Below are positions 33,581 to 36,370 of a stretch of DNA of 64,000 nt, one piece after another; the stretch's first letter is position 1; every line of letters begins with the position of its first letter. The stretch lies in assembly GCF_041929145.1 (NCBI RefSeq), contig NZ_JBHFNU010000005.1, positions 20,868 to 84,867 of the forward strand, given 5' to 3'. The DNA comes from Aerosakkonema sp. BLCC-F183 (GTDB lineage Bacteria; Cyanobacteriota; Cyanobacteriia; Cyanobacteriales; Aerosakkonemataceae). The notes under the pieces are model-generated. The model saw nothing but the letters and a program-made list of their open reading frames with translations. It ran no database searches and was not told the origin of the DNA. The translations under genes were made by a program, and so were the position numbers.

Positions 33581-34132
33581 TTAAGCCAACAATTCATTAA
33601 CTGCTACACTAAAACCTGGTAGCACGATTTGAGTGCTAACTACTTCACCCAAATTAAACAATTTTTGCTGCTGATTTGTAATAACCAATATCCACTGACT
33701 TTCGGGAAAAACTAGCCATATTTCCTGACAACCAGATTCTAAATACTCTCGGACTTTAGTAAATACTTCTTCTGCTACATCGGTGGGAGAAATAATTTCA
33801 GCAATTAGGGGAAAACTTTGCGGTAATACAGTAAAATTATCTCCATATTGTGCGAGTAATTCTGGGGTTAAATAAGCTATATCAGGACAACGCCCTCTTC
33901 CCACTGTTCGACAAGATACTTCAACGTAAACTTCGCCACCCTGCTGACTTGAACTTAGATAATTTCCCCAATAACGAGCGAGTTTAGCTTGAGTTCGGCT
34001 ATGTTTTGCTGTCATACCATTTTTCTCCACTAATTGCCCATCCACCCATTCTGTATTATCGGGCGGATTGACCATATAATCTTCTAATGTAAAGATTTTC
34101 GATATATTTAATGGTTCGGCGGTAGTTACCAT
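33581..34132 (-). CDS. Uma2-family (DUF820) putative PD-(D/E)XK endonuclease
   Basis: 183 aa with the Uma2 pattern (…LEDY…DGQLVE…, conserved acidic residues and the C-terminal …PGFSVAVNELLA). Confidence 0.7.
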   Translation of the reverse strand: MVTTAEPLNISKIFTLEDYMVNPPDNTEWVDGQLVEKNGMTAKHSRTQAKLARYWGNYLSSSQQGGEVYVEVSCRTVGRGRCPDIAYLTPELLAQYGDNFTVLPQSFPLIAEIISPTDVAEEVFTKVREYLESGCQEIWLVFPESQWILVITNQQQKLFNLGEVVSTQIVLPGFSVAVNELLA

Positions 34133-34279
34133 TGCTTTTCTCCTTGGCTGCTTATGTTATTATATTAACTCAAGTTGCTAGTTAGTTGCTTTCTTTGTAT
34201 GTTGTTGCGCTTTAGCGCCCTTATCTCTGTTGTAATAAGAGCGCTAAAGGGCTAAATCTAAGTAGGAAGGTGCGATCGC

Positions 34280-34888
34280 ATGATTCAAGCTATATCGAAA
34301 TCCCTTACTTTAGAACAGTTCATTGCTGACTATGGCGATAACGATCGCTACGAGTTGATTGATGGAGAATTAATTGATAGGTCACCAACCGGGCCACATG
34401 AAGAAGTAGCAGCTTTTCTCCTTCGCAAATTCAATGTAGAAATCGATCGACTAAATGTGCGTTGGTTTACACCCACACGCTGTCTGATCAAACCACTCGG
34501 ACAAAGCACCGCCTTCCGTCCAGATGTGCTGATTTTAGATAAAGAGGCTATTGCAAACGAACCACTTTGGCAACAGGAACCAATCATTACGTTGCCAAGT
34601 TCTATCAAGTTGGTGGCGGAAGTCGTTATTAGCAATTGGCAAAATGATTATGCTCGTAAAGTGGAAGATTACGCAGCACTCGGTATCCCCGAATACTGGG
34701 TTGTAGACTATTTAGGAGTTGGCGGACGGCAGTTTATCGGTGTAGCTAAACCTCCTACAATTACTATCCATCAGTTAGTTGAAGGAGAGTATCAAGGACA
34801 ACAGTTTCGTGGCAGCGATCTTATTATTTCCCCCACTTTTCCAAACTTGGAACTTACCGCCGAGCAAGTATTTGCAGCAGCAAGATAG
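34280..34888 (+). CDS. Uma2-family (DUF820) putative endonuclease, divergent from the paralog at 33581..34132
   Basis: LTLEQFIADYGDNDRYELIDGELIDRSPTGPHEEV…; 202 aa. Confidence 0.7.
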   Translation: MIQAISKSLTLEQFIADYGDNDRYELIDGELIDRSPTGPHEEVAAFLLRKFNVEIDRLNVRWFTPTRCLIKPLGQSTAFRPDVLILDKEAIANEPLWQQEPIITLPSSIKLVAEVVISNWQNDYARKVEDYAALGIPEYWVVDYLGVGGRQFIGVAKPPTITIHQLVEGEYQGQQFRGSDLIISPTFPNLELTAEQVFAAAR

Positions 34889-34972
34889 CAAAGCGCGATC
34901 GCATCAGAAACCGGGTTTCTTAATCAAATCTCTTTTAGCCGACATAAATCATCGCAAAAACCAGGTTTATTG

Positions 34973-36370
34973 TCAACTATATTCTATTTTCACATATTGC
35001 TTCACCACAGCTTGCAACTTAAAAACCGTCTCTCCATTTTCTTTCTTTTCCAGCAAACAACGTCTTCCCAAAGATTGCATTACCTTGAATAACTCTGAGG
35101 GCGATATCTGCATATCATTTAACAATTGAGATATAGAAACAGGTTCATTTTCAGTCGCTAACCTAGACATTACCTGTTTCTCTAAATCTGATAACCTACT
35201 TAATTGCCGATCGAATATATCTTTTAAATCTTCACTCACAAATAGGGCATCATATTTCAGAAATTCAGCGACTCTCCCACTACACAAATCTTTAATCAGC
35301 GTTGCTACTATTTTTAACCATAATGGATTGCCTTGGTAAAGGTTAATCAAGTCTTCCCATTGATTTTCATCAACTAAACCTTTCTCTTTGAGTATTTCCC
35401 TTGCTGCGATACCTAAACCATCTAATTGTAGCGATCGCACTAATTTATCTCCCCCTTCCAATGTTACAATTTCTTTCGGTTTATCCCAACTAAGCAGCAA
35501 CAAGCAACTATTATGATATAATTCTCCTAATCTTTTAAAGAGTAATCCATAATCTTCATATCCAGTTTCATAGCAACCAGCTAGTTGTCCGTTACTGAAA
35601 ATATGATGTACATCATCGAATACGATCAGACAGCGTTGCTTTCGCAGATATTCTATTAATTGCGATCGCTTATTTTCTCCACTATCTGATAATTCACTTT
35701 CTTGCTGGTTAGATAAAAATTCGATTAGTTCTTTTTGAATTAGTTCTAGCGGTGGTTTATCGCAGAGACTTCGCCAAATTACACAATCAAATTTATCCTG
35801 AATTTGCTTTAGTAGCTGAACTGCGATCGCACTTTTCCCGATCCCGCTTATCCCCAAAATTGCCACTAGGCGACAGCGTTCTTGCACTATCCATTTTTCT
35901 AGGATAGCCAGTTCTTTTGTGCGATCGTAGAAATTGCCGAGATCCGGTGCATCATCTACAAAAACCCGGTTTCTTGAAGAAACCGGGTTTTTAACTTGGT
36001 GCGATCGATCTTGTGGAACTTGTGGAGGTGGCAAAGGTTTTGGACAAAAGTTAATGTTACCAATACCTACAAAGTCTTGTGCGAAATTTGATGAAACTGA
36101 TGAAACTTTAGAGAACCGACACCTTTCCATTGTAGAGCGAAAATTTGATTTATTGACATCTTCTCCTAATACATCTGAGAGTACCTTCCAAAGTTCAGAA
36201 GCGATATCTTTAACGTGACCTTCTGTGCAATTAAACTGTTCTGCTATTTTCGAGTATTTCTGATTTTGCACCGTTCCCCGTAGGACAGCTTCTTGCAGAT
36301 CGTCTAGATGTTTCCCTGTTTTGGTGAAAATTAGGCGATCGGCTATTTTTAACATTTCTTTAATGTCCAT
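34973..36370 (-). CDS. STAND-class NB-ARC/AAA NTPase with an N-terminal HTH-like domain; no C-terminal repeat/sensor domain (possibly truncated)
   Basis: Walker A GISGIGKSAIA, Walker B LIVFDDVHHIF, and NB-ARC-like helical/winged-helix blocks downstream. N-terminal ~90 aa HTH-like (YSKIAEQFNCTEGHVKDIASELWKVLS). The protein stops at 465 aa with no TPR/WD40. A GAAACCCGGTTTC-TTGAA-GAAACCGGGTTTC hairpin element sits in-frame inside the gene. Confidence 0.65.
   Translation of the reverse strand: MDIKEMLKIADRLIFTKTGKHLDDLQEAVLRGTVQNQKYSKIAEQFNCTEGHVKDIASELWKVLSDVLGEDVNKSNFRSTMERCRFSKVSSVSSNFAQDFVGIGNINFCPKPLPPPQVPQDRSHQVKNPVSSRNRVFVDDAPDLGNFYDRTKELAILEKWIVQERCRLVAILGISGIGKSAIAVQLLKQIQDKFDCVIWRSLCDKPPLELIQKELIEFLSNQQESELSDSGENKRSQLIEYLRKQRCLIVFDDVHHIFSNGQLAGCYETGYEDYGLLFKRLGELYHNSCLLLLSWDKPKEIVTLEGGDKLVRSLQLDGLGIAAREILKEKGLVDENQWEDLINLYQGNPLWLKIVATLIKDLCSGRVAEFLKYDALFVSEDLKDIFDRQLSRLSDLEKQVMSRLATENEPVSISQLLNDMQISPSELFKVMQSLGRRCLLEKKENGETVFKLQAVVKQYVKIEYS
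35960..35991. repeat. Palindromic hairpin repeat (same family as 19071-19101) embedded in-frame in the STAND NTPase gene
   Basis: AAAACCCGGTTTCTTGAAGAAACCGGGTTTTT; it encodes …KNPVSSRNRVF… in the linker between the N-terminal domain and the P-loop. Confidence 0.75.

Follow-up and report, generated by a model that had tools for sequence, protein, structure and literature searches.

Here we describe a gene neighborhood within a 64,000-nucleotide stretch of Aerosakkonema sp. BLCC-F183 (contig NZ_JBHFNU010000005.1; the whole stretch is called the window, and all coordinates refer to it). A gene for a STAND NTPase lies there beside two genes for Uma2 (DUF820) nucleases, together with several copies of a short palindromic hairpin. 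The most likely reading, in which we place moderate confidence, is that the NTPase works as a STAND switch that binds DNA and regulates its own expression, with an optional Uma2 nuclease partner, and that the hairpins are generic. The genes and the promoter concerned are as follows.

34973..36370, minus strand: STAND NTPase, 465 aa, with the domain order helix-turn-helix (HTH; VMAP-M9), NB-ARC, winged helix (Pfam NB-ARC 1.4e-14; relatives; AF2 model)
36399..36506, minus strand: NTPase promoter, with a -10 box TATAAT (36399-36404) preceded by 10-nt direct repeats AAAGT(C/A)GGA(A/T) (TRF; D1)
33581..34132, minus strand: Uma2-183, intact PD-(D/E)XK nuclease gene, 183 aa (Pfam Uma2 8.2e-25)
34280..34888, plus strand: Uma2-202, intact PD-(D/E)XK nuclease gene, 202 aa (Pfam Uma2 3.1e-30; PADLOC PDC-S03 7.5e-90)

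The NTPase belongs to a family without a repeat sensor

The 465-aa open reading frame (ORF) matches the Pfam NB-ARC profile at 54.4 bits, against a cut-off of 23.5, and its translation contains the Walker A motif GISGIGKS and the Walker B motif LIVFDDVHH. Its N-terminal helical domain is annotated as PF26355 HTH_VMAP-M9 in relatives at 92-93% identity, and in the PDB the closest sequences to it are those of plant CNL NB-ARC domains. Pfam found no repeat family in the NTPase that could represent a C-terminal TPR, WD40, or LRR sensor. The original prediction for this locus, made from the sequence alone, had described the gene in these terms, with Walker motifs, an HTH-like N-terminus, and no C-terminal sensor, and the description is confirmed at the coordinates given above. 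It had also called the NTPase possibly truncated, which we can now reject. Among 5.8 billion proteins searched, 2,241 relatives were recovered, and lengths and domains were taken from the best 120. These are 457-493 aa long and share the PF26355 HTH_VMAP-M9 plus NB-ARC make-up, save for three shorter entries of 303, 322, and 389 aa. Proteins of equal size are also encoded in 80 metagenomic NTPase loci.

An AF2 model of the NTPase, generated from 19 sequences, is poor overall, with a predicted local distance difference test (pLDDT) score of 59.9, and was used for domain-level architecture only. The helical domain at residues 1-85 and the C-terminal winged helix at residues 390-465 are modeled confidently, and the linker at residues 85-150 is disordered. 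Foldseek matched the model to the NB-ARC modules of NLR proteins, Apaf-1, and CED-4, and to ORC/Cdc6. Since the whole family is about 465 aa long and the protein ends after the winged helix, the absence of a repeat sensor is a family trait and not a truncation. Comparison with full-length orthologues, which the original prediction had proposed, shows that the family is normally of this length and that no C-terminal repeat is missing. The NTPase has the normal length of its family, which is large, occurs in filamentous cyanobacteria, and has no repeat sensor.

Iteron promoters of the NTPase family

The repeats in the NTPase promoter have a period of 10 and are present in 6.1 copies according to TRF. 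Exact AAAGTMGGA sites occur only four times in the 64-kb window, all within this promoter. Within 260 nt of sequence ahead of the NTPase gene at 80 family loci (20.8 kb in total), we found 45 such sites, versus 14 in 683 kb elsewhere, an approximately 105-fold difference in density, and the motif sits at fixed offsets upstream of the family genes. By alignment, the iteron promoter is conserved in orthologues and in a relative of 55% identity (L122). The lag-10 autocorrelation across 73 distinct promoters is 0.44, compared to 0.26 in controls. The layout recurs in other paralogue clades with cores of their own, namely ..ATGTCGGA.., ..ATGTCATA.., ..ATGTACGA.., and ..ATGTTGGA.., and within 160 nt upstream of the gene (L118-L203) every NTPase clade has two to six phased 10-nt direct repeats abutting the -10 box. 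Every family member has a canonical -10 box 30 nt before its start codon, with the iterons overlapping the box, and a conserved leader, ..AAAACCCC.ACATCTACC..ACC, stands ahead of the NTPase ATG. We infer that proteins of this family may bind their own promoters by means of the HTH domain, the winged helix, or both. Clade-specific iteron promoters of this kind would provide a simple system in which to study how a sensor-less STAND NTPase reads DNA and regulates itself.

Phased 10-bp iterons could also mark an origin, with the NTPase acting as an ORC/Cdc6- or DnaA-like initiator of an integrated or defunct replicon. The ORC/Cdc6 matches in Foldseek, which have the same AAA+ plus winged-helix size, and the hypervariability of the region between strains would be consistent with such a role. 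However, we find it hardly credible, as overlap with a -10 box 30 nt before the start codon is the layout of a promoter or operator, the loci have varied housekeeping contexts and contain no replicon or mobility genes, the matches at the sequence level are to NB-ARC and not to ORC, and the structural model is of low confidence.

Uma2 genes beside the NTPase

The two Uma2 genes named in the original prediction are both intact and above the Pfam threshold. Against the Uma2 profile (PF05685; cut-off 27), Uma2-183 scores 87.7 bits and covers positions 9-171 of 172, and Uma2-202 scores 105.4 bits and covers positions 4-171. Both keep the conserved E..PD..E..K..Y residues (E28/P83-D84/E112/K126/Y130 in Uma2-183 and E25/P81-D82/E114/K127/Y131 in Uma2-202), at columns that are at least 85% conserved among 34 Uma2 sequences.

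Uma2-183 lies downstream of the NTPase gene on the same strand, and this arrangement recurs in relatives. In a metagenome-assembled genome (MAG) of Leptolyngbyaceae (L119), where the NTPase is 86% identical, the order is NTPase, a 47-nt gap, Uma2-183, and then a vault protein gene. The Argonema NTPase is 73% identical and is followed by Uma2 after 222 nt, and in a Phormidium genome (L121) the corresponding values are 62% and 29 nt. The Uma2-183 orthologues directly 3' of these NTPases are 89% (L119), 81% (L120), 83% (L128), and 73% (L121) identical to the window gene, and because these identities fall with those of the NTPase, Uma2-183 co-diverges with it. Uma2-183 is the vertically co-inherited, co-directional downstream partner of the NTPase, and the gaps of 29-47 nt in relatives suggest an operon.

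Of 54 family loci, 15 (28%) have a Uma2 gene as the immediate downstream neighbor of the NTPase gene, which makes Uma2 by far the commonest downstream gene by Pfam. Among the other long ORFs of the same loci, 8 of 439 are Uma2 (odds ratio 20.7, p 1.5e-10). Our own iterative Uma2 hidden Markov model (HMM) missed divergent members such as those of L122, L132, and L157, and the counts were therefore cross-checked by Pfam. The adjacency is spread over 7 of 20 NTPase clusters, and six Uma2 subtypes, which are mutually at most 44% identical or unalignable, are found in the downstream position. The association between the NTPase and Uma2 is strong but facultative.

Based on these results, the following mechanism may be envisaged. 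The NTPase would bind its own iterons via the HTH domain and/or the winged helix and autoregulate its expression, and, like other STAND proteins, it would switch or oligomerize in an ATP-dependent manner on a signal. A downstream Uma2, where present, would be co-expressed with the NTPase and, as its effector, would act on DNA; in the Aerosakkonema lineage, the co-inherited nuclease is probably the effector of the NTPase. The hairpin described below would be a REP-like selfish or structural DNA palindrome that at most separates convergent transcripts in the module.

The second nuclease gene has a different history. Uma2-202 is present in Aerosakkonema funiforme (L118) and absent at the equivalent position in L119, L120, L121, and L128. 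As the relatives have no such gene in this spacer, Uma2-202 and a 66-nt repeat were inserted between the NTPase and Uma2-183 in the Aerosakkonema lineage. Uma2-202 is flanked by 19-nt direct repeats, TAGsAArGyGCGATCGCAT (D10, HIP1-containing), at 34263-34281 and 34886-34904. HIP1 follows the stop codon of 5 of 27 Uma2 genes, versus 20 of 446 background ORFs. We considered HIP1 as the boundary of a Uma2 cassette and set this aside, with GCGATCGC at the start of the window gene only; it is suggestive at most. One further feature lies in this part of the window.

34207..34252: unrelated 18-bp inverted repeat in the divergent spacer between Uma2-202 and Uma2-183 (I6; 89% complementary, 10-nt loop)

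The Argonema-type spacers between the NTPase and Uma2-183 (L120 at 9400-9600 and L128 at 6380-6600) hold another four perfect palindromes of small size, such as ATGGGGTTTAAACCCCAT and AGTCGTCTTTAGACGACT, and thus several unrelated hairpin families colonize one spacer.

Alternatively, the NTPase may be an ATP-dependent transcription factor of the MalT/AfsR/GutR type that controls its own promoter, and perhaps the divergent neighbor as well, while Uma2 lands in a permissive spacer and is uncoupled from it. This is possible, although clearly less likely than the switch with an optional nuclease. Its appeal lies in the iteron promoter and the HTH domain, in a divergent gene ~230 nt upstream in most loci, and in the majority of family members that have no Uma2. 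The recent insertion of Uma2-202 into the same spacer also fits, as do the common occurrence of Uma2 fragments and the presence of Uma2 in only some members within NTPase clusters, which points to ongoing gain and loss. It sits poorly with the persistence of Uma2-183, which stays adjacent, co-directional, and under purifying selection next to NTPases that are 62-92% identical, and with the six Uma2 subtypes in one position and the 20-fold enrichment. In addition, the divergent genes upstream of the NTPase share no common family among the loci, so no conserved regulatory target is evident.

A generic palindromic repeat

The window contains the following hairpin copies and an associated gene remnant.

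34905..34972: 66-nt composite repeat between the convergent NTPase and Uma2-202 stops, consisting of a unit at 34907-34919, a 37-nt core, and a degenerate unit at 34957-34969
35960..35992: 35-nt palindromic repeat in the NTPase linker, encoding KNPVSSRNRVF, with a 16-bp perfect stem (I7; 100% complementary)
19042..19103: hairpin cluster, a 28-nt tandem duplication (unit, loop, and half unit) followed by a complete hairpin
19131..19217, plus strand: orphan 3' remnant of a Uma2-183-type gene, last 28 codons and stop (BLASTP; Uma2 HMM)

The full element is a 35-nt palindrome that contains AGAAACCSGGTTTCT twice, reads the same on both strands, and has no stop codon in any frame. Allowing up to one mismatch, GAAACCNGGTTTC occurs six times in the window (19043, 19071, 19089, 34907, 35961, and 35979), with 0.14 expected, and 0 of 100 shuffles reach six. 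When ~186,000 species genomes were scanned for pairs of units separated by 3-9 nt, the hairpin was found in at least 117 stretches from Cyanobacteriota (filamentous), Chloroflexota, and Planctomycetota. The 80 loci listed include about 52 from named filamentous cyanobacteria (Oscillatoriales, Nostocales), 14 from Chloroflexota (Anaerolineae, Caldilinea, Promineifilum), and 5 from Planctomycetota. The central bases of units 1 and 2 are complementary in 125 of 133 copies, A..T flanks are present in 119 of 133, and the spacer is mostly T-NNN-A, which together give a perfect 16-bp stem and a 3-nt loop, 35 nt in total. In 669 kb of cyanobacterial loci the unit density is 1.8 per 10 kb. Most copies are intergenic, and they often form the tip of larger, locus-specific palindromes. 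A position at most 30 nt downstream of a converging stop is taken by 28% of copies, versus 6.4% of random intergenic positions, or about four-fold more. The GAAACCSGGTTTC hairpins are a high-copy, generic palindromic repeat, similar to repetitive extragenic palindromic (REP) sequences and REPINs or to small dispersed repeats (SDRs).

Details of the repeat differ between phyla. The Anaerolineae/Chloroflexota copies mostly have CCAGG/CCTGG centers and lie 2-10 nt past stop codons, and the Gemmataceae/Planctomycetaceae copies have a 7-nt loop, CAAAGCA. Loci outside the cyanobacteria include L006, L010, L012, L014, L027-L030, L041, L042, L052-L054, L059, L065, L067, and L080. In L028, hairpins lie between tRNA genes, and L104 holds a tandem array with a 20-nt period. 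The same palindrome in three phyla, concentrated at the 3' ends of genes, is the oddest loose end of this analysis.

We also considered the hairpin as an intrinsic terminator, which is not supported; the stems are stable, but at least five T in the next 8 nt are found in only 12 of 133 copies, and a terminator scan of the window gave none at the hairpin copies. Stem mismatches on the strand of the upstream gene comprise 6 GU and 15 AC and thus have no G-U bias, a test that is negative or inconclusive. Rfam gave no hairpin family, either for the whole window at gathering thresholds or for eight hairpin loci at E values up to 1. The hairpin 13-mers are absent from the searchable full-text literature, and a 2026 survey of cyanobacterial RNA structures does not discuss repeats. 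No hairpins were found in IMG/VR viral contigs, so a phage origin is not supported. When the flanks of 241 hairpin sites were compared with 1.6 Mb of loci, a small sample, only filled homologues were recovered, which gives no evidence of recent hairpin mobility. A RAYT (IS200/IS605-like) transposase is not among the 25 families listed for ORFs adjoining hairpins, though no whole-genome search was made.

The individual copies in the window partly match what had been predicted. A hairpin had been placed after the Uma2 stop, and a copy is indeed found at 34907-34919, beginning 18 nt past the stop of Uma2-202, as a single 13-nt unit instead of a double hairpin. The degenerate copy nearby is real as well, and lies at 34957-34969 rather than at 34964-34975. 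On its own this unit is at chance level, with two mismatches (9 found versus 3.1 expected), but two observations validate it: its counterpart in the sister strain reads GAAACCTGGTTTT, and an unrelated metagenomic contig (L174, also L176; 247-309) holds a homologue of the whole 66-nt element, which does not lie beside a Uma2 gene. Viewed as a possible MITE, the 66-nt element has unit-like termini and no evident target-site duplication. At 19042, the cluster begins on the base after the stop codon of a histidine kinase, the usual place for this hairpin; it has a folding energy of -35.5 kcal/mol (z -5.8), and its arrangement is identical in A. funiforme. The orphan Uma2 C-terminal fragment that had been reported in this area is also real, at 19131-19217, adjoining the cluster. 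Residues 35-62 of the ORF 19029..19217 are 50% identical to the last 28 residues of Uma2-183 by BLASTP (E 6e-9), with a common end at the stop, and the Uma2 HMM built for this analysis matches the remnant with an E value of 1.4e-5.

The original prediction explained these contacts by a mobile or recombinogenic hairpin that moves Uma2 genes, within a decayed defense island with a truncated NTPase. Two of the three hairpin sites in the window do touch Uma2 sequence, with the 66-nt element present only where Uma2-202 was inserted and the remnant at 19131 abutting the hairpin cluster. Furthermore, the two strains diverge at a breakpoint that coincides with a hairpin, and the repeat stands right after the stop of a few other Uma2 genes (L007, L040, L112, and L166). 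Even so, this account is very improbable. Genes with a stop within 150 nt of a hairpin fall into 204 Pfam families, and Uma2 makes up 2 of 84 such ORFs, one of them added by hand. In 669 kb of loci that were fetched via the NTPase, and were therefore not ascertained on hairpins, a unit follows the stop by at most 60 nt for 2 of 21 Uma2 genes and for 22 of 444 other long ORFs, which is no enrichment (odds ratio 2.0, p=0.30, Fisher). The 66-nt element of L174 lies away from Uma2, filled and empty sites were not found among homologous loci, the neighbors are not defense genes, and the NTPase family is normally ~465 aa. The contacts between hairpins and Uma2 in the window are occasionally to be expected of a repeat found behind about 5% of stop codons. 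The claim that Uma2 genes move with the hairpin or are recombined by it is therefore not supported, and the census of hairpins against Uma2 genes that had been called for gives, in the sampled loci, a generic repeat after genes of all kinds with Uma2 at background level.

The hairpin inside the NTPase gene

The original prediction also located an in-frame copy inside the NTPase gene, and this one holds in full, with a perfect 16-bp stem at 35960-35992. Its folding energy is -21.8 kcal/mol (z -6.6). An insertion at -48/-42 residues from Walker A is found only in L118-L121, L128, and L151, and the peptide reads RNPVSPRNRVS in relatives down to ~60% identity and is absent from all more distant family members. 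One arm of the hairpin was lost in P0005 and the hairpin is decayed in P0022, with the ORF intact in both. The coding DNA around the hairpin is approximately as conserved as the hairpin itself. This copy is best read as a single, old 33-nt insertion that kept the reading frame and that the disordered linker tolerates.

A separate observation concerns the paralogue P0010, which has a divergent N-terminal HTH domain and is near-identical to P0009 from ~30 residues ahead of the hairpin peptide. This resembles domain shuffling between paralogues.

The intragenic hairpin could instead be functional, either as an attenuator or terminator or as a recombination joint between the HTH and ATPase modules. 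In the window, L118, and L119 it has A5/T5 flanks (AAAAACCCGG...CCGGGTTTTT) and resembles a bidirectional intrinsic terminator, and it has been kept in relatives down to ~60% identity. P0010 also looks chimeric, with a foreign N-terminal domain on a P0009-like remainder. Nevertheless, we regard this possibility as improbable: the T tract is absent in L120 and L121, a consensus terminator scan found nothing at the site, the flanking coding DNA is about equally conserved, P0005 and P0022 have lost an arm or decayed while keeping intact ORFs, and the P0010 junction lies ~30 residues upstream of the hairpin. A regulatory role of the intragenic hairpin is unlikely, and we continue to regard it as an old, tolerated insertion.

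Strain comparison and neighboring genes

Contig JBHFNO010000043.1 of A. funiforme (GCA_041929185.1) is 99.3-99.9% identical to the window and therefore represents a sister strain, and gene order there (L118) is the same as in the window. From 24973 to ~34900, 0.4% of positions differ, and both Uma2 genes are ~99.5% identical between the two strains. The NTPase gene diverges by 6.6% (92/1398 nt), as against 99.5-100% identity of the two strains otherwise, and past 36740 the DNA of the two strains is mostly unalignable or rearranged. The divergence has a sharp boundary between 34941 and 34756, at the composite hairpin 34905-34972. This difference marks a recombination tract that imported a divergent NTPase allele. 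Positive selection on the NTPase was considered and rejected, as the codon changes comprise 47 synonymous versus 37 non-synonymous, which points to an imported allele rather than diversifying selection. Compared with positions 34940-38000 of the window, L118 has an extra Peptidase_C39 gene and additional small genes.

The flanking genes encode CobN, an AI-2E transporter, an HcyBio-like protein, a major vault protein homologue, a PEP-CTERM protein, and sensor kinases. Overall, three intact genes and copies of a generic repeat lie in an ordinary part of the chromosome of an A. funiforme-like cyanobacterium.

Several of the neighbors have features of their own. The vault protein homologue at 30671-33427 (minus strand) matches Pfam Vault repeats (7e-66), MVP_shoulder (1e-54), and Vault_2/3/4. 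In the window and in A. funiforme, this bacterial homologue of the eukaryotic major vault protein adjoins the NTPase and its Uma2 partner, and so it does in the Leptolyngbyaceae MAG, whose outer flanks differ; it is not found at the equivalent position in Argonema and Phormidium. The divergent NTPase neighbor at 36601-37593 (plus strand) encodes 330 aa, combines a weak PEP-CTERM sorting signal with internal 24/48-nt repeats, and is only partly alignable to its sister-strain counterpart. At 38045-38365 and 38366-38812 (plus strand), a 106-aa ORF of no family abuts a gene for a DUF7689 protein (2.6e-37); both are kept in A. funiforme, and they may form a two-gene cassette. The CobN gene (39065-43231, minus strand) contains an in-frame 18-nt tandem repeat of 14.8 copies at 40601-40867, where several offset BLAST alignments to the sister strain point to a difference in copy number. 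Tandem repeats with heptamer or octamer units (e.g., ACAACTG x18) are found at 47754-47881, 24362-24423, 27721-27844, and 6406-6436, and are of the short tandemly repeated repetitive (STRR) type typical of filamentous cyanobacteria.

Strength and significance of the proposed module

The following points weigh against an autoregulated NTPase with a Uma2 partner and generic hairpins. Unrelated downstream genes, mostly housekeeping, are found in 72% of the family loci, with 5-FTHF cyclo-ligase (8/54), aldolase, exonuclease VII, and others in this position, and since most family members have no downstream Uma2, the nuclease is dispensable for the NTPase. The NTPase is 6.6% divergent between strains whose Uma2 genes are nearly identical, so the pair is not always inherited as a unit. 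The enrichment itself was calculated from metagenomic NTPase loci that are phylogenetically non-independent, with a background Uma2 rate from an HMM of our own that overlooked at least one divergent Uma2 gene (L122). No PADLOC model recognizes the NTPase, for which there is only a marginal match (E 0.002) to the winged-helix model WH_III-A. As for the hairpins, the census is a sample of genomes, and few T-rich tails together with no G-U bias mean that an RNA-level role is not supported.

Much of what was found is ordinary, namely annotated families and a generic repeat, and its main effect is to remove a false lead, that of a truncated sensor and a Uma2-specific hairpin. Uma2/DUF820 is among the most expanded uncharacterized nuclease families of cyanobacteria, and an NTPase adjacency that is 20-fold enriched and repeatedly evolved gives a functional handle on it. 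If the effector role is true, this would be the first defined context for Uma2, with the nuclease serving as effector in a two-gene module for conflict or genome surveillance. A AGAAACCSGGTTTCT repeat family shared by the three phyla would imply a common host factor or a mobilizing enzyme that crosses phyla. The combined proposal is more speculative, and we think it rather unlikely to hold in its entirety. It comprises a new class of sensor-less DNA-binding STAND switches in filamentous cyanobacteria with paralogue-specific 10-bp iteron codes, a co-transcribed Uma2 licensed in about a quarter of them, and AGAAACCSGGTTTCT as an undescribed three-phylum repeat.

Comparison with known systems

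Small dispersed repeats of the Nostocaceae were reportedly described by Elhai et al. in 2008. These repeats and the REP/REPIN sequences of proteobacteria (Bertels & Rainey 2011, PMC3116915) resemble the hairpin described here in being short, high-copy, extragenic palindromes that form inverted-doublet hairpins, also occur as single units, and are nested in larger palindromes. Unlike REP/REPIN, the unit here is 13-15 nt long and itself palindromic, has the same sequence in three phyla, and has no insertion polymorphism that we could see. For the copy in the NTPase gene, the closest parallel may be the Rickettsia palindromic elements, which are said, by Ogata et al. in 2000, to lie in frame within protein genes. 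Both are palindromic repeats translated in frame, so that the protein gains an additional peptide in a region that tolerates it. The element here is 33 nt long rather than 100-150 nt, only a single coding insertion is documented, and most copies are intergenic.

Antiviral STAND NTPases (Avs, or bacterial NLR-like, and bNACHT proteins) act with nuclease effectors. As in those systems, an NB-ARC-clade STAND NTPase is linked here to a PD-(D/E)XK-fold nuclease, in multicellular bacteria and at a locus that varies between strains. In contrast, this NTPase has no TPR, WD40, or LRR sensor, its N-terminus is an HTH domain and not an effector, it has no PADLOC match, and the nuclease is a separate gene, present in only ~28% of family loci. 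Among ten proteins across 27.8-43.2 kb, PADLOC gave strong scores for the Uma2 genes only, as candidate PDC-S03; Uma2-202 matches PDLC04835 (PDC-S03) over its full length with an E value of 7.5e-90, and Uma2-183 matches more weakly. The 106-aa ORF has a marginal match (E 0.0077). PDC-S03 differs from a proven system in being a candidate of undemonstrated function, and because Uma2 is highly expanded in cyanobacteria, where it may be housekeeping-like or selfish, the match says little. The PADLOC scan therefore finds no recognized defense cluster across 27.8-43.2 kb. The idea of a remnant or variant defense island survives only in part: the locus is not an island, as its neighbors are housekeeping genes, nor a remnant, as the three genes are intact, but the neighborhood of NTPase and Uma2 is not random, and on this ground a STAND-plus-nuclease conflict module stays a hypothesis.

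The N-terminal domain provides a second link to conflict systems. VMAP-M9 is one of the variable alpha-helical middle modules of VMAP proteins in vWA-MoxR ternary conflict systems (Kaur et al. 2020, PMC7159879). The NTPase shares with these the PF26355 HTH_VMAP-M9 domain, and AP-ATPase (NB-ARC) modules are common in such systems (PMC7159879). Here the domain is instead fused to a stand-alone NB-ARC, with no vWA, MoxR, or VMAP-C at or near the locus.

Finally, the NTPase can be compared with regulators and initiators that bind DNA. It differs from MalT and AfsR in having no sensor domain, and from DnaA and ORC in belonging to the NB-ARC clade by sequence and in that its DNA binding is only predicted. 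With the STAND regulators MalT, AfsR, and GutR and the AAA+ initiators DnaA and ORC/Cdc6, it shares an NTPase switch joined to HTH and winged-helix domains and phased repeats at its own promoter.

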